Shown here piece by piece: positions 11,301-55,401 of a stretch of DNA of 64,000 nt. Within the stretch, counting starts at the first letter, position 1, and the number at the start of each line of letters is the position of its first letter. Made by a program: the position numbers and the translations under genes. Where the stretch lies: positions 27,738 to 91,737 of IMG/VR virus record IMGVR_UViG_3300035396_000367; one strand, written 5' to 3'. Origin of the DNA: a virus. The notes under the pieces were generated by a model. It worked only from the letters and a program-made list of their open reading frames with translations. It ran no database searches and was not told the origin of the DNA.

Positions 11301-13773
11301 TTGTAAACTTTAAGAAGTGGACTGTATCCATTTTACTTTTAACTGCAACGATTATATCGTACCGAGACATAGTATCTGTAATGTTAACGTAAGTTATGTC
11401 ACCTGTATAATTTGGAATAACCGGCATTGTAAGTCCATCCTTCCAGAACTGTATCGCGGATATACTGTTGTCACCTGTGAACAAAATAAAGTATGAACCG
11501 TGTACCTTACTCGTATCCGGCTCTGTATTGAACAAGTCATACTTGTAAACTGCTTTTGTACCAACTGACAATACACTACTAAGTGTCTGTCGGTACACCT
11601 GAACATCTGAAGAATTTACAACTGGAAATTTTAAGTTGAACCTACAGTTTGAGAATCTTGCCAGGAAAGAGTCTCCTAATTCATTTTGAAGAGTAGCAGT
11701 ATAATTAGTTAAGTCTACACCGTACACTGCTTTCTTCTCTATCGTTGAAGAGCCCTCATACAAACGCAACAGCTGTAACTGATCATTATACTCAACCTGT
11801 GAAATAATTGCTTTTTCAAGATACTTATTGTTGTGTACAACATTCGCGTTATCAAATTCTGACACATTTGTAAAATTAAAAATTGACTTTGTATCAAATA
11901 GGAGTTCTTGCCCACTCAGCGAGCCTTCCTCAAAAATAACTTTGTACAGTTTAGTTTTATCGTTAAAACATATATATGAACCATTGAACTTATTAAGTAT
12001 CGAACCAATCGCACCGGCTTGAATTACGAATGATGACCCTTCGTAATGTATGTAGGCCTCTGTACTTCCATTAGAAAACAAATATATTACTACAGTCTCC
12101 TTTGTGTACGGATTGAATGTAACAGACAAACACTTGGCACCGTTAATGAACAGTGCTGGAGGTGAAATCCTACGAGATATTGCTACAGCATCTTTAATAA
12201 CAATTCTACCACTCTCATCGTTGAAAACAACCGATAGCATCCCGGAGGCTATCTCTTGTAGAATAGCCCAACCGGACTGATCTTTAAATGAGGCATACGC
12301 TACTATAGGATCGTGAACGACACCAGTTAGGTCTAAAGTCGATACATCAACGCCTGCATCTATTAACAGTGCCTTTACTAGAAAAGAAAACTTTCTCCCA
12401 CTCCAGTCTCTAAAGAGAATATCACCACGAACAACTTTTTTTCGTATCAGTGCCCGGATACCGTCTTTACATCTGAAGTCTACTTCCATCGCCTTACTCT
12501 TAACCGAGTACGAGTTTACACTCCCTTTAAACCTTGTGAAAGACTGTCCGTTGTATATTACTGAAATCACAACACCTATGTCCGTATCCATGTACAAACT
12601 GTAGGGAGAGTCCTCATTGAACTTTGATAGAAATGAATCATGATTACTCAACGTGAAACTAGCGTCTGCAGCACTGTACCCTTGAAGGTCCTCCGCTTTG
12701 GATCTTGAAATTCTGAAAGTCTTAGCTCGATTAAACCCTTCTATGTAATCTTTCTGCTCCGGGTCAGCAGTGTGCGAAGCAACGTCGTACTCCACAGACA
12801 AGTCATACAGCTTCGAAACACCGTAGTTTGCATGGAAGAAGAATTTGAACTGCAAATATCTTCCGTACACAACGTCTGTCAGTAATTCCCCTGACTCACA
12901 CTCAACCCACGGAGACCATGAACCAAAATCTTTCTCAGATACAGACCTAACAAATACACTTACGTTTGACCCACCCCAAGTAACTCGTCCCCAGTTTATA
13001 AAATCTGGACCACCCTCAACAACAGGTGAAACTGAACTATCTGAACCACTGCATAAAGTTACGTCTTCTGTAACACCACTCTTTAAAGATAACGCCGGGT
13101 ATATTTTAAGTACATCCCCTTCTTCGAAGTCAACACTTCCACTTGTTAGATTAAAAGATACATACCGATTAGAGTATTTTATCCCAACATACGCATCCTC
13201 TGTTACACCTACAGAAGAACCTTTTACAACGAATCTTGCAGACGGACCACCATCCACACACAGCAAATACCAAGTCTCAGAGAATAAATTCTTTAAATAT
13301 TTTACGTCAGTTATGGAACCATCACCTATGTTTAGTTGCTCACCTACTACACCATACGAATCAACACCACCTATCACAACACTATTCCCGGGAGAGCCTA
13401 CACCATAAAAGTTGATGCAGGAAATGCTCGAACCAGCTGAAGGAAGTTTTAGAAAGTTTGAACTTAACTCTATTGTGTTTGTAGCTTCATTTATTGATTT
13501 AACTCTGTGAGGTGTATCACTTCCTGAAAGTGTTATGTAGTTCCCCAAGGCACTGAACAGTACAGGCCCAGGTGCTATAGTTACACTATTAACTGTAGAC
13601 GAAACTACTGTCGCATCAAAATACTTTCTCGTCTCTTGAAACTGTGCAAATTGGTCATAAGTGTATATCTTAGATATAAAATCATCTTTCAGCCAATCAA
13701 ACTTTATTGAATAAGCATACTCATTTTTTAACTCTTTTGTTTTTCTCTCTGAAGCAAGTGTTAACTTAAACAA
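5377..13773 (-). CDS. Tail-tip/baseplate hub (Tal-like) protein with large insertions including CBM5/12-like repeats (2798 aa)
   Basis: Two genes after TMP. Hub-like segments ASFTLSNHD..FKGSV..FRCKD, GWAILQEIA..VFNDESGRIV, DVKNKIVV, and C-terminal DQKSIKRY..NPYV..GLPIIQLGDII. TTG start. Confidence 0.7.
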   Translation of the reverse strand: MFKLTLASERKTKELKNEYAYSIKFDWLKDDFISKIYTYDQFAQFQETRKYFDATVVSSTVNSVTIAPGPVLFSALGNYITLSGSDTPHRVKSINEATNTIELSSNFLKLPSAGSSISCINFYGVGSPGNSVVIGGVDSYGVVGEQLNIGDGSITDVKYLKNLFSETWYLLCVDGGPSARFVVKGSSVGVTEDAYVGIKYSNRYVSFNLTSGSVDFEEGDVLKIYPALSLKSGVTEDVTLCSGSDSSVSPVVEGGPDFINWGRVTWGGSNVSVFVRSVSEKDFGSWSPWVECESGELLTDVVYGRYLQFKFFFHANYGVSKLYDLSVEYDVASHTADPEQKDYIEGFNRAKTFRISRSKAEDLQGYSAADASFTLSNHDSFLSKFNEDSPYSLYMDTDIGVVISVIYNGQSFTRFKGSVNSYSVKSKAMEVDFRCKDGIRALIRKKVVRGDILFRDWSGRKFSFLVKALLIDAGVDVSTLDLTGVVHDPIVAYASFKDQSGWAILQEIASGMLSVVFNDESGRIVIKDAVAISRRISPPALFINGAKCLSVTFNPYTKETVVIYLFSNGSTEAYIHYEGSSFVIQAGAIGSILNKFNGSYICFNDKTKLYKVIFEEGSLSGQELLFDTKSIFNFTNVSEFDNANVVHNNKYLEKAIISQVEYNDQLQLLRLYEGSSTIEKKAVYGVDLTNYTATLQNELGDSFLARFSNCRFNLKFPVVNSSDVQVYRQTLSSVLSVGTKAVYKYDLFNTEPDTSKVHGSYFILFTGDNSISAIQFWKDGLTMPVIPNYTGDITYVNITDTMSRYDIIVAVKSKMDTVHFLKFTTTYSNGALYIESNTVGVPGTELISGRFDGSTFYTSGMSISKVVEGSAAGIKEQVVGTELLQFNDIFSVSVFNAGSPSFVNPYYIEGSNSGYGPNTWRFGDSLSEIVLSETSAYVNIGSDYRYFVVYNPAATFTVIDTLGFSLTDSRVKKWVSSYTNLFCIYYDRNSIYNGNIFYIKLLSGGLVLDCTYSEFASNNTLPEHGAGYYKLEESEEISSVIGVSPFPEDGKVYAVVKHNSGSYYVHIIDIENPHTNSNLIPLVVDGRDTLNGFTYDYSKKIPVMYGGYNDGRNSKGVSYSVTEKAVTATFENLAGKPVKRVVVRDMTKVSGAGDRYWYFQKFGGFAATTSDIYAWSDDMVESSQKIRCAVYQDFVQLPATGDGATTYFTLPSAYLDPLFDIQYVYVDGSDVGDNFVADGAGGIKLFFTPKNGAVIKVGNGKKIKRYSGVFRTFESTVGTTLSTGWGSLTIESPEYGVIGCRVTENSFCNQNGSVIIRGYDINNAEISETLNFATSLLMDSNGMKYVETTKEFRRFRVAGIDAAGLWVDDKSAVQFSSVYSDIIPGVDIEIYTTPNTLIEQFGGDGTVSGYTDKVGITISIIEGVTLLDSLKSLDTFTHLFSDSSMSSVYLGSGNIGDVYVRSEEELIVPYFSLAYDKNLIEVGYDVNDSDVKNKIVVSTDKLDPVPFRDIDVETGLFVGSSVLTKELSSIGWSYSDLVWAKLHRLWDNLTPIFLYKGNNTDYDVTFSNPAYVGDIQSPIRFNMNFVEDIGYLDATGFFTGSESDFNNHVLSPSKFIVHAGYGSDRVVNQLEKVYRAFAPWDKSLVDVPAEYPSKYNRDTMSWSSTWQYYRGDSVFRHGFLYCCIVDNLNQDPSTALGFWSSMLTDLNAWDVTLSYAEGSIVKWNGCMYRALQASQGVLPSTDTHWLKVYDSRLQSWAAGRDYQVGEYVSHLVSGIDRVFEAESLNVAKTPGTEPTYWDEVSANTFTLAPYVAYAVGDLVESDGRIFRCTSSWSGLDIIDFQDPAFITKFKNSWVCIDTLGNLRSYDLSGPVSVTAPAGSYILDTNHGRVRKVVTPGTQGVDLVTEPVESSYIEFWDNLKEYSDGDTILGINASDAAKVPMVSGAVNKGKTPSLNTPAYWVIDSSITKWEPGVTYLKDSMVIHGGVLYRAILTNRRLTPPSTLSDRWEVVSSSFSIDDWDASKSYKFGDIVFYLGTVYSSSKKNIGIVPFIIEKSGVVVYDTSAPWVKTMAGYDYVQNRRYSVNDVVIYSGCLYKCVVETAESPVDSTTSWELQNYAIGAWSAGTYSHSVVLHTGEYWYAGDATTDEPSLSSTDWVKLGSSILVDWDGAIKYPINSVVKDFGKVYKSILVNKGNDPSLSVGWISKTPSFVSTWVPQSYSEGSYVEYSGLYYTSLLSASSSDVPGSSPLVWTVTNSLIVWSDTIEYGLGDLVVYNEVLYKCIIVSNPPVSTSLGLEPDLYREVWEPYFNIGVDVWSAVAYSQDKLVKNGAAYYLSETATLATDVPGFSDKWSRLSIPGGDDGDFTDGIGAAYALDLTGGIRVPVGSTKFRLSLDGSPDVEIDVERYSELNQYGDYTVYAEDIVNAINDTFPGTASVERTVFNGGTVYVRVKSQVAGSASSVELSMSTGSSGCRLFFGSNRIRRTASTDTTIGEYEKLNTIVYAGGEKAAFTYYQGAYSFRPEIHNGEEVWVLVLSDSMRASCEGKKLVLHYPTRVGVDRLDVDKTYMSGSGSAKSLQRGDGKIRRLRSYTPAGLYYYPAQNTNVKGLSGFHLNMLFDVSDVYSDAVYLRVENPTDNPADALYVETEDPSGMSVWVSRVELRGRPMVSAAKELTIVRDQKSIKRYQEIEYKFSNPYVTDVATAKKIANYMLPRKAFPLIKMDVSCVGLPIIQLGDIIGVNDIYTFLNYELFELISCEESMNQSSGYTMSMTLTEIRDKYTVKGDGVRVVSKEQQKLFIGGL
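6720..8795 (-). repeat. Tandem array of ~13-14 CBM5/12 (ChtBD3)-like protein repeats in the hub protein
   Basis: Recurring W-x4-5-Y-x2-G-[DS]-x-V-x3-G-x2-Y...P...W units, e.g. WDVTLSYAEGSIVKWNGCMYRAL, WEPGVTYLKDSMVIHGGVLYRAI, WSDTIEYGLGDLVVYNEVLYKCI. Confidence 0.8.
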
Positions 13774-51831: not shown

Positions 51832-52839
51832 TTACAGCAGACCTTTTATTAAGCAACCTTTTGCTACAGCTTTAAAAGGATCACTCACTTGGAATACATC
51901 ACCAAAAACAACTTTGTCACCAGTGGCAGTTACAACATTTGTTTTTGCAAGAATCGTTTTGAAAATATCAACGAAACCTTTCGGTGCCGAAGTACCCCCG
52001 GATATCGCGATAGGAAGTGCCCGAGGGAATTTACGACTCATCGCTCCGAATTGTTTTTGAATCGTGTGAATCGAATATGAAATAAGTTCGGTGTAATAAA
52101 CAGAAAGTGCTTGAAGCGTTCCAGCCTCATACTTTTTGTTTAAAGAAAACTTTGTGCTGTCCTCTTTGAGTGAACGAACAACTGGAATAGGTGAATCTAT
52201 TGCGAGAGATGTTGATTGGTCAATCCAGTCACCACCACGTGTGATTGCGAACTGGCAGACTGGCATACTCATCCACATGACTGCGAAGTTTGTCATACCT
52301 GATCCAAAGCTGATAGCAATACCGGTGTACCCGTGTTCTTGTAACCCGGCGTACCCGACTGCAATTGCTTCGTTCAATGGCTCTGCTTCGTACCCGAGAG
52401 ATTCAATAATCTTTTTCAAACTCTCTCTGTGATAAACCAGTGCGTTGGCTTTAGCTACGTCATCGCACGCGTCCGCAGGTATTGAGTAAACAACTTTGTC
52501 TCCCGACTTAGCTGGCTCATCCCCGAGTACACCTTCGATTATAGATCTGATTACGATCAACGCTTCAGGCTCTCTGTTTGAGATATACCCTTTTGCTAAC
52601 GGCCGTCGAACCTCTTGTCCAAAAACTTCTCCGAACTCGAGTGACTTGTCCCCGACGATAAAAAGTTTGTCTCCGTGGATAACATAGTTTACGTCAGAGC
52701 CATTGATCATTTGCTGACGTGTAAATTCATTGTTAGGTGCTTCGAAAAAAGCATCACGCTGTGTGTATGAAACAAGCTCTTTCCCTTTGTTGAACATTCC
52801 GACGATAAACGCCGTTCCGATATCTAGACCTTTAACCAT
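51832..52839 (-). CDS. Actin-like ATPase (actin/MreB/MamK superfamily; 335 aa)
   Basis: Phosphate-1 GLDIGT, RRPLAKG, YSIPA, connect-1 LNEAIAV, phosphate-2 ISFGSGMTN, RGGDWID, adenosine ISGGTS, connect-2 AVAKGCL. Confidence 0.88.
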   Translation of the reverse strand: MVKGLDIGTAFIVGMFNKGKELVSYTQRDAFFEAPNNEFTRQQMINGSDVNYVIHGDKLFIVGDKSLEFGEVFGQEVRRPLAKGYISNREPEALIVIRSIIEGVLGDEPAKSGDKVVYSIPADACDDVAKANALVYHRESLKKIIESLGYEAEPLNEAIAVGYAGLQEHGYTGIAISFGSGMTNFAVMWMSMPVCQFAITRGGDWIDQSTSLAIDSPIPVVRSLKEDSTKFSLNKKYEAGTLQALSVYYTELISYSIHTIQKQFGAMSRKFPRALPIAISGGTSAPKGFVDIFKTILAKTNVVTATGDKVVFGDVFQVSDPFKAVAKGCLIKGLL

Positions 52840-53209
52840 TTGTTTTTCCTTTCCTTAAATTTTTTAAAGCTGCAATTGAATCTGCCGTGTCATCCACTTT
52901 GGTTGTCGCCTCAGATCTGACACTTGACTGAACCCCGGAGAAGTCCATGTTTATTTCCGGTAAAATTTCTTCTGACTTAAAACTACATTGTTGATGTAAC
53001 GGAAAACTTTCATGCCTATCCTGTACTGGATAGCTCACACTCGTTCTCTCAATTACAACCGGTGCCGTCTGATTCAGCCCAGTGACTTCTACTACAAATT
53101 TTATAGCACCTGACTTCAGGTACTTTACTACAGCAATAACGCAGACCACCATAGCAACGATGGCGATGCACATCAAAGATATTGCTATCGTCATCAGTGT
53201 TCGAGTCAT
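52832..53209 (-). CDS. Single-pass membrane protein (125 aa)
   Basis: N-terminal hydrophobic helix, polar linker, C-terminal amphipathic SIAALKNLRKG; overlaps the actin start. Confidence 0.7.
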   Translation of the reverse strand: MTRTLMTIAISLMCIAIVAMVVCVIAVVKYLKSGAIKFVVEVTGLNQTAPVVIERTSVSYPVQDRHESFPLHQQCSFKSEEILPEINMDFSGVQSSVRSEATTKVDDTADSIAALKNLRKGKTNG

Positions 53210-53499
53210 TTCGTTTCCTCTGGTTTTGTTCTTACAACTCCGGCTGAGTTTTCCATGGCTACACGAATCTGTCCTACCGCTGTCATAACTGCGGGACCAC
53301 CGTTTAGTCCGACAATTATTCCAGGAACATTCAGTGCTTGAATCACAGCAATCATTGACGGATACTTAAGTGCCAGGATTGGAAGTACGAACACGACCCA
53401 AATTAAAACTACGGCGGATATCGCCCCGGAAATAATCAGGGAGATGAGAGCAACCTTGGTACCGGTTCTAGAGATGTTGGCTAGGGTGTTATTAAACAT
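53206..53499 (-). CDS. Small two-TM membrane protein, holin-like (97 aa)
   Basis: ATG 53499 with GAGGA RBS; two hydrophobic stretches, charged C-terminus. Confidence 0.5.
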   Translation of the reverse strand: MFNNTLANISRTGTKVALISLIISGAISAVVLIWVVFVLPILALKYPSMIAVIQALNVPGIIVGLNGGPAVMTAVGQIRVAMENSAGVVRTKPEETK

Positions 53500-53529
53500 T
53501 TTTTGTTCCTCACTGTTTTCCAAAGTTGT

Positions 53530-53558
53530 ATTTTAAGATGAACCTCTTTGTCTGTCAA
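53530..53558 (-). promoter_or_regulatory. sigma70-type promoter of the morphogenesis operon
   Basis: TTGACA-17nt-TAAAAT(AC), ~30 nt upstream of the first ATG. Confidence 0.7.
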
Positions 53559-53568
53559 TCCCTTATAG

Positions 53569-53739
53569 CCCGAAGGGGTCGAAGACCCCGTCAGAACCTC
53601 CACGAAGTGGGGTTCCTTTATTGCGACGTTAGTCGCATAGATCACGGAGCGAAGCGACGTGATCATTGTCCAAAAAAATGTACCAAATAAAAGTCCAAGT
53701 AAGTATAATACGGGGACACGAAGTGGACACGTATTATAC
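53569..53739 (+). other. Cluster of five DNA hairpins with GAA/GTTA loops and tandem G.A pairs
   Basis: 53575-89, 53594-615, 53622-37, 53640-64, 53703-39 (sequences in findings). Confidence 0.75.
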
Positions 53740-53888
53740 GTGACCATCCGTGAAAAAAACAGGCCTGTTTTACGTGCAAAAACGTGTACGGTAAGTATAC
53801 ACTTTTTCAATATAGTATCCGTATTTTGCTTATTTGAGTTAGGTGCGCTCCGACTGGCATCGAAAAGTATACAAATTTTTTTATAATA

Positions 53889-54045
53889 TTGCACTAAATA
53901 TTCGAATAACTTTTGCGTATTTTCAGCATAACTAACTAATGTTCGTGAAAATACGTAAAAGTTATAAAAAAAAATTGACAGGAGTGTACCTTTTTTCGTG
54001 ACCAACATATTCTCTACTTACAGTTATAAATCAATTTTAGTGCAA
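53889..54045. repeat. Nested AT-rich inverted repeats
   Basis: 20-bp arms 53906-25/53946-65 (1 mismatch) inside 10-bp arms 53889-98/54036-45. Confidence 0.65.
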
Positions 54046-54164
54046 AACTACGTTATTATTTTTATGGTAACCGTGATCGCGCGACGAATCTATCACTTTT
54101 GTTACAACTTTAGCACTTCTGCAATATCTATTTTACCGATGAAAAACAGCTATAAAAAATGTGC

Positions 54165-54193
54165 TTGACAAAAACCAATTGTTCGATTATAAT
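54165..54193 (+). promoter_or_regulatory. Consensus sigma70 early promoter
   Basis: TTGACA-17nt-TATAAT exactly. Confidence 0.85.
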
Positions 54194-54291
54194 ATCTATA
54201 CTTCTTTCCGACCTAGATCGGACAGAGTAAAAACGTCAAATTAAAGATCACCGGGTATGCCTCAGCAGGTATACACTAGAAGGAAAGGAAC

Positions 54292-55401
54292 ATGCGCAAA
54301 AAAACACATTTTATAAAATTATCTTCATATTGCAAAATTCACAACATAACATACCCAACTGCCCATCGTAGATTTACTACCGGTAAATTAAAAGGCTTCA
54401 GAAAGGAAACTGGAACCATTTGGCTGGAGCCAGAGTTACCAAGAGACCTTGTAAAGGAGAAAACAGCTTTAATATTCTGCAGCTGTTTCTCAGAAAATCC
54501 TGACAACATTTCGTTGCAGGAGCAACTTTGTAAGGAGTATTGCGAAAAAAACAACATAGCTATTTACGAAATTATATTTGATAAGCACAGAGATCAACGT
54601 TCCTCTAAACTTTTTTTAAAAGCGTTGCCGTACCGAACGTGGAATACGTTAGTAGTCTACTCTGAGTTTTCTGCACCTGCGGTACCAATGGTACTGGAGA
54701 GTTTTTTAAAAATGCAAGGTAGAACCTTAGAAATAGTTAACGAGGATGCTACAGCTGACTCAGCTGAAATTTTGTTACGTACCGAATCTATTATTCGAAA
54801 ATCGTATTCTAGTTTAGTAAACTACACACACTCGACACGTCTCGCTAGGATGTTTATGCATCTAACGGATGTATGCTTCCCAGGTTCCAGAGTTAGTAAA
54901 AAGAGGACTTTGCAGGACGTAGCGAAAGACGATTATGGAATAGTGATTGGAAAAGATTTGACATCGATTCAACAAAAGTATATCGAAGAAACGATCCGTT
55001 TTACTGCCGGAAAGTCTCAGTTCAAAAGTATCGAAGAGTTGCAGTCTAATTTTTTTGTTACCCCTGTTCGTAGAAAACGTCAACCTAACCACGGTACCAT
55101 TGGTACCGATAAACAAGAGTCCTGTACCAATGGTACCGAGAATAATCCAACACCCTCTACTGACGGTACCAATGGTACCGTAAAAAAGAGAGGCCGAATC
55201 GAGAACCTGAAGTATGTTCAGCGAAAAAGAAATGAGGAAGAAATGAAACAGTACACTTACCGTGAACGTATAGACATGTTCGATACTAACAAGAAAGAGG
55301 TTATGACTTTGAAAGATCTGTATATGATGGCTGTAATTACTGGACAATTCAAAAACGCTACTACGGAAGAGCAACAACTTATAGATAAATATTTAGATTA
55401 A
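54292..55401 (+). CDS. IS607 TnpA-like protein (MerR-type HTH + degenerate serine-recombinase domain + C-terminal extension; 369 aa)
   Basis: KLSSYCKIHNITYPTAHRRFTTGKL HTH; ALIFCSCFS..NISLQEQLCKEYC in place of YARVSS..L..Q; TLVVY; FLKMQGRTLEIVN. Confidence 0.65.
   Translation: MRKKTHFIKLSSYCKIHNITYPTAHRRFTTGKLKGFRKETGTIWLEPELPRDLVKEKTALIFCSCFSENPDNISLQEQLCKEYCEKNNIAIYEIIFDKHRDQRSSKLFLKALPYRTWNTLVVYSEFSAPAVPMVLESFLKMQGRTLEIVNEDATADSAEILLRTESIIRKSYSSLVNYTHSTRLARMFMHLTDVCFPGSRVSKKRTLQDVAKDDYGIVIGKDLTSIQQKYIEETIRFTAGKSQFKSIEELQSNFFVTPVRRKRQPNHGTIGTDKQESCTNGTENNPTPSTDGTNGTVKKRGRIENLKYVQRKRNEEEMKQYTYRERIDMFDTNKKEVMTLKDLYMMAVITGQFKNATTEEQQLIDKYLD

Follow-up and report, generated by a model that had tools for sequence, protein, structure and literature searches.

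A one-strand array of GNA-looped DNA hairpins at the divergence point of early and late genes in a large uncultured phage

The + strand between positions 53569 and 53739 carries five hairpins, or six when an overlapping alternative at the first of them is counted. The evidence supports the view that this array is a DNA-level, strand-specific structural signal, which would fold in vivo. Among the functions listed for it in the original prediction, an origin or priming signal fits best. The stretch of DNA analysed (the window) makes up the right-hand 64 kb of an IMG/VR virus contig 91.7 kb in length. The contig is 49% complete by CheckV and the phage is therefore of about 185 kb.

Structure and strand bias of the array

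The hairpins, and the spacer that sets the last of them apart, are as follows.

53569–53577, + strand: alternative mini-hairpin CCC-GAA-GGG, which includes CCGAAGG and overlaps H1 (sequence and mini-hairpin scan)
53575–53589, + strand: H1, GGGGTC-GAA-GACCCC, a C-GAA-G triloop on a 6-bp stem
53594–53615, + strand: H2, GAACC(T)CCAC-GAA-GTGGGGTTC, 9 pairs with one T bulged and a C-GAA-G triloop
53622–53637, + strand: H3, TGCGAC-GTTA-GTCGCA, a C-GTTA-G (GNNA) loop on a 6-bp stem
53640–53664, + strand: H4, GATCACG-GA-GC-GAA-GC-GA-CGTGATC, an exact GCGAAGC core with a tandem G.A internal loop
53665–53702: AT-rich spacer between H4 and H5, 28% GC in the scanned 40-nt window 53663–53702
53703–53739, + strand: H5, a 37-nt hairpin with a 10-bp outer stem (GTATAATACG/CGTATTATAC) that has TATAAT on both strands

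Coordinates and sequences agree letter for letter with the original prediction of five hairpins and an overlapping CCC-GAA-GGG. H1 to H4 fill 96 nt with linkers of just 2–6 nt, and H5 lies 38 nt further on. A 10-nt core, CACGAAGTGG, is common to H2 and H5, and the outer arms of H4 bear GATC and CGTGATC. The claim that the loops are C-closed GNA or GNNA is borne out in every hairpin, with GAA in five cases (the alternative included) and GTTA in one, such that all six fit C-GNA-G or C-GNNA-G. The tandem GA/GA predicted in two stems is found in the internal loops of H4 and H5. Inward of its outer stem, H5 has a G.A mismatch, a G-C pair and the tandem GA/GA, followed by CAC-GAA-GTG. Every mismatch on the + strand is a G.A, made up of the tandem pairs in H4 and H5 and the one extra in H5. 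Purines account for 24 of the 27 unpaired + strand bases (chance probability about 2.5e-5), the sole unpaired pyrimidines being a bulged T and the two Ts of GTTA. At the same positions the minus strand has UUC/TTC loops and pyrimidine-pyrimidine mismatches.

Folded as single-stranded DNA, the + strand from 53560 to 53750 forms precisely the listed hairpins at -37.1 kcal/mol (z = -5.67), an energy equalled by none of 200 shuffles. The minus strand as DNA has a z of -5.11, and RNA folding of the region gives z = -5.26 for the + strand and z = -3.75 for the minus strand. The nearest-neighbour model used gives GNA loops and sheared G.A pairs no extra stability. Even so, it prefers the + strand for H3 (-6.2 kcal/mol, minus strand -5.8), H4 (-6.2, minus strand -5.7) and H5 (-8.5, minus strand -6.1).

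The density of these motifs is not random. Six C-GNA/GNNA-G mini-hairpins per 171 nt were found in only 1 of 200 Markov-simulated genomes, and five CGAAG per 171 nt in none of 200, the strand having a total of 69 CGAAG copies in 91.7 kb. No second cluster of this kind is present elsewhere in the 91.7-kb contig, nor is a comparable one present in 125 related loci and the whole genomes of three relatives (about 2 Mb). GCGAAGC by itself occurs at chance frequency genome-wide, therefore only the cluster counts.

Several other identities were considered for the hairpins and rejected. An intrinsic terminator would have a T-run, where there is only a weak T-rich tail at H2 (+ strand), and no + strand gene lies upstream. 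The outer stem of H5 has the TATAAT of an Frpo-type ssDNA promoter, but no -35 at 17 bp within the stem. The array does not belong to a mobile palindromic repeat family, as its stems are all five different and lack copies elsewhere.

Promoters, genes and repeats around the array

The array was predicted to lie between divergent promoters, and a promoter scan confirms this (53558–53530 on the minus strand and 54165–54193 on the plus strand). The features of the gap are as follows.

53530–53558, minus strand: late (packaging-operon) sigma70-like promoter, TTGACA-17-TAAAAT, reading leftward (promoter scan)
54165–54193, + strand: early sigma70-like promoter, TTGACA-17-TATAAT, 12/12 consensus, reading rightward
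53740–54164: AT-rich tract to the right of the array, with a 12%-GC stretch at 53863–53902
53481–54008, minus strand: 175-codon open frame, which covers the gap, all of the hairpins and the late promoter

Both promoters have the array upstream of them; its distance to the late -35 is 11 nt, and that to the early -35 approximately 430 nt. The first late gene has a GAGGA ribosome-binding site and an ATG at 53502. On the minus strand, weak promoter-like sites at 54336–54308 (9/12) are the sole candidates to read through the array.

A supercoil-gated cruciform switch or insulator, coupling late expression to early transcription, is the main rival of the priming reading. Divergent transcription would put negative supercoils in the gap and short GNA-capped palindromes would extrude, as in phage N4, so that the UP-element region upstream of the late promoter would be altered or torsion absorbed. 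The hairpins of N4, of 5–7 bp and with C-G-closed loops having a 5' G and a 3' A, are described as extruding at physiological superhelicity and as having a stable template-strand arm (PMC4496689). The + strand here is the template strand of the late operon, and the conserved array begins 11 nt from the late -35, flanked by divergent promoters that are both near consensus. However, a pure cruciform does not need a strict purine bias on one strand, no regulator has been identified, and the late promoter is already near consensus. A cruciform switch on the late promoter is seen as unlikely, though it and the priming reading do not exclude each other.

Leftward of the array, every gene is on the minus strand. 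In order, these are two small membrane-type genes, an actin-like gene, a 369-aa gene, and the large terminase, portal and tail genes. Third in the operon leading to the terminase and portal is the gene of the actin-like ATPase (51832–52839; Pfam Volactin, 2.8e-63). Only 27–28% identity links the large terminase to its counterparts in Bacillus phages Slash and Basilisk and in Microcystis phage MaeS. The 369-aa gene directly upstream of the large terminase gene is without a family match and is a candidate small terminase. In the tail region, a single open frame of 6934 codons runs from 15822 to 36626 and is flanked by frames of 2798 codons, with weak tail-fibre matches, and 1462 codons.

The presence of the array upstream of an operon with the large terminase and a candidate small terminase would suit a packaging signal (pac/cos) or a genome terminus recognised by terminase, as had also been proposed. 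This proposal found no support, since contigs from two independent runs cross the region unbroken, although this is weak evidence. Terminase sites are also not known to require GNA loops on one strand. A packaging role is regarded as very improbable.

To the right, on the + strand, the early promoter drives the gene of a 369-aa recombinase-like HTH protein, a ParB-like gene and genes for Dda-like and UvrD-like helicases; a ligase-like gene is also found on this side. The first early gene (54292–55401, 369 aa) resembles the IS607-type MerR-HTH serine recombinases. The resemblance is seen in language-model features (atlas, 0.90), in predicted structure (TM 0.53–0.56) and in a PHROG transposase match (3e-5), but Pfam did not confirm a recombinase domain. 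The product may be degenerate, judging by the stretch that usually holds the catalytic serine, which reads FCSCFSEN. Between 54679 and 55475 there are five copies of a 17-bp palindrome, CGGTACCAATGGTACCG, four of them inside the recombinase-like gene and the fifth 44 nt ahead of the ParB-like gene. These candidates are more likely to be parS sites or operators.

Tn3-type res sites sit between divergent genes. The array could on this basis be a set of res-like sites or operators, recognised in double-stranded form by the IS607-like recombinase/HTH neighbour, with its resemblance to MerR-HTH serine recombinases, or by another dimeric regulator. The palindromes, however, have no common half-site, the arms of H1 to H5 sharing only the central CGAAG. 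Odd-length asymmetric centres and purine-only mismatches are likewise unexpected for dimer sites, and the neighbour lacks Pfam confirmation of a recombinase domain. Such a role is considered very improbable.

The gap is rich in repeats. CGTGA occurs seven times across the whole of it, against 0.8 expected, with six copies in the same orientation and two in the arms of H4. CGTGATC occurs three times in the region (0.01 expected), and AAATACG and GTATAC three times each in the AT-rich tract. A 20-bp inverted repeat at 53906–53965, 95% complementary and with a 20-nt spacer, bears the motif AAAATACG; this motif is present three times in the gap against 0.02 expected. The AT-rich tract with its repeats looks like an origin or operator region.

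The 175-codon frame and the potential for transcription provide a different explanation, in which the array is part of a leftward transcript, as a structured leader or non-coding RNA, or is the 3' half of the 175-codon gene. Conservation of the hairpins would then stem from RNA or protein constraint. The stop-free run of 171 codons in the gap is longer than any in 3000 simulations, and the counterpart in a close relative is open for 153 codons. The weak minus-strand sites at 54336–54308 could provide read-through, and as RNA the region folds with the z values given above (-3.75 for the minus strand and -5.26 for the + strand). Against this, the minus strand would have UUC loops and pyrimidine-pyrimidine mismatches, and the choice of sequence favours the + strand. 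No Rfam family, tRNA or tmRNA was found in the array region. The frame contains the late promoter, is without a convincing ribosome-binding site or promoter of its own, and is cut 22 codons short by a stop in the close relative. Compared with neighbouring genes, the first half of the frame changes some four times as fast (12 of 64 codons, against 3–4%). The frame has no family and its structure model is poor (pTM 0.24). It is rather doubtful that the frame is a real gene; if it is, the purine-only loops and mismatches of the opposite strand still need a separate explanation. An RNA or coding origin for the array as a whole is quite unlikely. An Arg-rich frame of 50 codons on the + strand over H1 to H4, with neither ribosome-binding site nor promoter, was also rejected. 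No RNA dataset carrying this stretch is listed.

Conservation in close and distant relatives

The close relative is a 17.5-kb JGI contig with 97% identity in the large terminase (TerL) and 96% in the ParB-like protein. Conservation was read via the translated counterpart of the 175-codon minus-strand frame, which was used as a view of the underlying DNA. About a quarter of the possible changes are synonymous and invisible in such a comparison, the resolution of which is therefore below that of a DNA alignment. There are 12 changed codons in the flanking AT-rich DNA (53763–53954), one visible change in the AT spacer between H4 and H5 (F112L) and one changed codon at 53563. Within the 171 nt of the five hairpins there is one visible change, + strand 53582 A>G. 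This turns the H1 loop from GAA to GGA, at the free middle position of the GNA loop. If the changes were evenly spread, no more than one of 13 visible changes within the hairpins would have a binomial probability of approximately 0.003. The codons that hold the late -35 hexamer are the same in the translation of the close relative.

As read from this translation, conservation of the array far exceeds that of the DNA next to it. A strand-specific folded-DNA element is supported by the + strand loops and mismatches, by conservation better than that of the neighbouring DNA, and by the location of the single change at the free N of a loop. A further contig, X2, from a lake-water run and of 93% identity, spans 52800–54400 and differs there by 113 substitutions but by no indels. 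Viral contigs were also scanned, by exact match and with protein anchors, and gave nothing near.

Of the three more distant relatives examined, G001 (180 kb, 59% identity in TerL) shares the major divergence point, at which ParB and helicase genes are opposed to a long late cluster. The region is not alignable with the window sequence, yet it contains three adjoining hairpins centred on CGAAG/CTTCG, with a fold z of -5.16.

G001 hairpin 1: TAC-GAA-GTA
G001 hairpin 2: ACACGGTAAAAATCG-AAG-CGATTTTACCGTGT, which includes CGAAG
G001 hairpin 3: GAAACGC-TTC-GCGTTTC, a 7-bp stem with an exact GCGAAGC on the other strand

The CGAAG cores of G001 are thus on both strands. What the window and G001 have in common is the type of element and its location, but not the one-strand rule. 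Seven TGAACT repeats in the same orientation, which are iteron-like, and two copies of GTTCAACTA flank these hairpins. Two near-identical palindromes of 26–30 bp, ACTGGACA-N4-TGTCCAGT, surround the hairpins together with the TGAACT repeats (L086:13150–13240 and 13380–13650). A cluster of GCGNAGC at 178 kb in G001 is a Pro/Ala-rich coding repeat, and a 174-aa gene of G001 is unrelated to the 175-codon frame of the window.

The arrangement in G001 bears on several of the alternatives. Its hairpins are 180 nt upstream of a perfect-consensus promoter in the late direction, which argues against a cruciform acting on such a promoter. Other genes stand between the packaging operon and the divergence point in both G001 and L094, and the G001 hairpins remain at the divergence point, which speaks against a packaging signal. 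A centromere for the actin-like gene was rejected on similar grounds: the G001 operon is about 8 kb off, behind other genes and with no gap in front, the L094 operon also has other genes upstream, and the G001 hairpins are at the divergence point.

An array comparable to that of the window was not seen in G002. G003 (181 kb, 37% TerL identity) has at least nine perfect triloop hairpins at another divergence point, with mixed loops that do not follow the GNA rule. These hairpins (L146:12535–13155) have differing stems of 6–8 bp and lie in a 206-codon frame of about 60% GC, with a ribosome-binding site before it and a UUCG terminator after. The location of the G003 hairpins within such a frame favours the RNA or coding explanation.

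Among further TerL relatives, L101–L103, L124, L052 and L123 have four to six different hairpins 3–4 kb upstream of TerL. Except in L123, these hairpins are located where genes diverge and in part overlap small frames. In L101 (3480–3960) and L124 (2100–2520) they are approximately 3.9 kb upstream of TerL, and these two share TTAGGC-GCA-GCCTAA directly before the ATG of a small frame. The hairpin clusters of G003 and of the L relatives hint at a recurrent theme rather than homology.

DnaG-type primase genes are present in G001, G002 and G003. A primase gene is not on the half-genome contig of the phage studied here, and a search for Prim-Pol (PF09250), a family different from the RepB'-type primase, gave no match. 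The GC-skew analysis that had been proposed was run in all four genomes, where skew mirrors gene orientation and is silent on the origin. The terminal repeats of G002 and G003 (114 and 127 bp) look like assembly overlaps and say nothing on the termini.

A possible priming signal and its relation to known hairpins

The rule for exceptionally stable mini-hairpins, d(GCGNAGC) and d(GCGNNAGC), and their natural occurrences come from Hirao and colleagues (review PMC13037366). At priming sites, the motifs are GCGAAAGC in G4, GCGTTAGC in St-1/alpha3 and CCGAAGG in RSF1010 ssiA; the motif of the G4-type origins is reported to bind SSB poorly (PMC13037366). All of the array loops fit the rule. H4 is GCGAAGC itself, the alternative at H1 has CCGAAGG, and the C-GTTA-G loop of H3 is the same as that of the St-1/alpha3 motif. 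The d(GCGNAGC) type is a structural motif and not a functional family, however, and the array differs from it in packing five or six copies into 171 nt, with outer stems and tandem G.A pairs.

The array may be an element of a replication/control region, most like a primase-type single-strand initiation signal. This reading is put forward tentatively, as a possibility and not as the probable answer. It is suggested by the oriented repeats, the AT-rich tract, the adjacent replication genes and the DnaG-type primase of the three distant relatives. It is also suggested by the + strand loop rule, the density above simulation, the conservation, and the hairpins of G001 at the homologous divergence region. 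The packing of H1 to H4 with short linkers resembles that of compact ssDNA signals, and the same motifs are found at the known priming sites of G4, St-1/alpha3 and RSF1010.

In the mechanism proposed, the adjacent AT-rich tract would be unwound, either by the pair of strong divergent promoters or by an initiator that binds the repeats nearby. In the GC-rich island, the + strand would then fold into four adjoining mini-hairpins plus the fifth. The GNA/GNNA loops and sheared G.A pairs would make these unusually stable and a poor substrate for SSB, and the complementary strand, being pyrimidine-mismatched, would remain open. The folded + strand could keep the bubble open and serve as the landmark for a primase, either of the DnaG type found in the distant relatives or that of the host. 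Synthesis would proceed leftward into the late genes, because the + strand would be the template. The only CTG, the DnaG start trinucleotide, 3' of the array is at 53764–53766, 25 nt past H5, although this motif is too short to carry weight.

Some of the evidence stands against priming. Signals of the G4 type work on DNA already in single-stranded form, and the array is in a double-stranded tailed phage of about 185 kb. G001 has its cores on both strands, G002 is without an array and G003 is off the GNA rule. The repeats could be operators and not iterons, and coding constraint from the overlapping 175-codon frame could explain the conservation. GC skew is uninformative and the primase gene is absent from the half-genome contig.

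Comparison with known systems shows likenesses and differences on each side. The G4, St-1 and alpha3 origins and the plasmid G4-type ssi have, as they are described, adjoining one-strand hairpins within approximately 100–140 nt, and a DnaG-type primase is present in G001–G003. In RSF1010 oriV, with ssiA/ssiB and the RepB' primase, the mini-hairpin CCGAAGG is within the origin of a double-stranded replicon. The RSF1010 origin has iterons and an AT-rich region, and the oriented CGTGA repeats and AT-rich tract near the array are similar to these. There is one ssi signal per strand in RSF1010, whereas the array motifs are all on the + strand and paired signals on the opposite strand are absent; G001 has both orientations.

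Promoters of the N4 type are the other natural setting of these hairpins. In N4 they have GCGGAGC or GAA loops (PMC13037366), and the conserved promoter bases are -8G, -9C and -10G (the GCGRAGC core), with flanks up to +1C (PMC4496689). The + strand could in the same way be the template on which a single-subunit phage RNA polymerase makes leftward transcripts. The C-G-closed GAA/GGA triloop hairpins are the N4 promoter core, with the exact GCGAAGC in H4, and the 3-nt loop with a central purine is shared with the P1–P3 promoters of N4, as are the 6-bp stem and GAA of H1. The P1–P3 stems are of 5–7 bp, and the inner stems of the array hairpins other than H1 are of 2–4 bp. Most of the defining features fail, as the required -8 G is in H4 only (T in H1, A in H2 and H5) and the five hairpins have no shared flank (A-tract, +1 C). 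The GC-rich heptamer with its flanks is likewise restricted to H4. The hairpins are stacked rather than heading transcription units, five promoters crowded into 170 nt ahead of a sigma70 promoter would be hard to account for, and both operons already carry host-type promoters. The array is not at a genome end. No N4-like polymerase (PF00940) was found in G000–G003, in a weak search in which the control genomes were also blank and the contig is half a genome. A role as N4-type promoters is therefore held to be highly unlikely.

The mini-hairpin motif and its use at priming sites and in N4 promoters are already known. For an array of five or six hairpins, biased to one strand, between the sigma70-type early and late promoters of a large dsDNA tailed phage, the literature examined has no counterpart. 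To our knowledge, proven roles of DNA mini-hairpins are limited to small single-stranded phages, one plasmid and phage N4, and almost nothing is known of the origins and timing switches of large uncultured phages.

In this siphovirus-like phage of approximately 185 kb, the array is located precisely in the interval that separates the early promoter from the late one. Should its role be to prime replication or to sense supercoiling, the reach of folded-DNA signals would go well past the textbook cases. The hairpin clusters at divergence points in G001, G003, L101–L103, L124 and L052 raise the further idea, which is speculative and improbable as it stands, that one-strand GNA/G.A arrays at the early/late divergence are a general and so far undescribed control device of large uncultured tailed phages. 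Such a device would be a torsion-sensing platform of multiple hairpins, opened by divergent transcription and licensing the start of replication, late transcription or both. The array is short and can therefore be tested directly in plasmids and M13 vectors without culture of the host. If the reading is true, it would provide a sequence signature with which to find origins or control hubs in metagenomic phage genomes.
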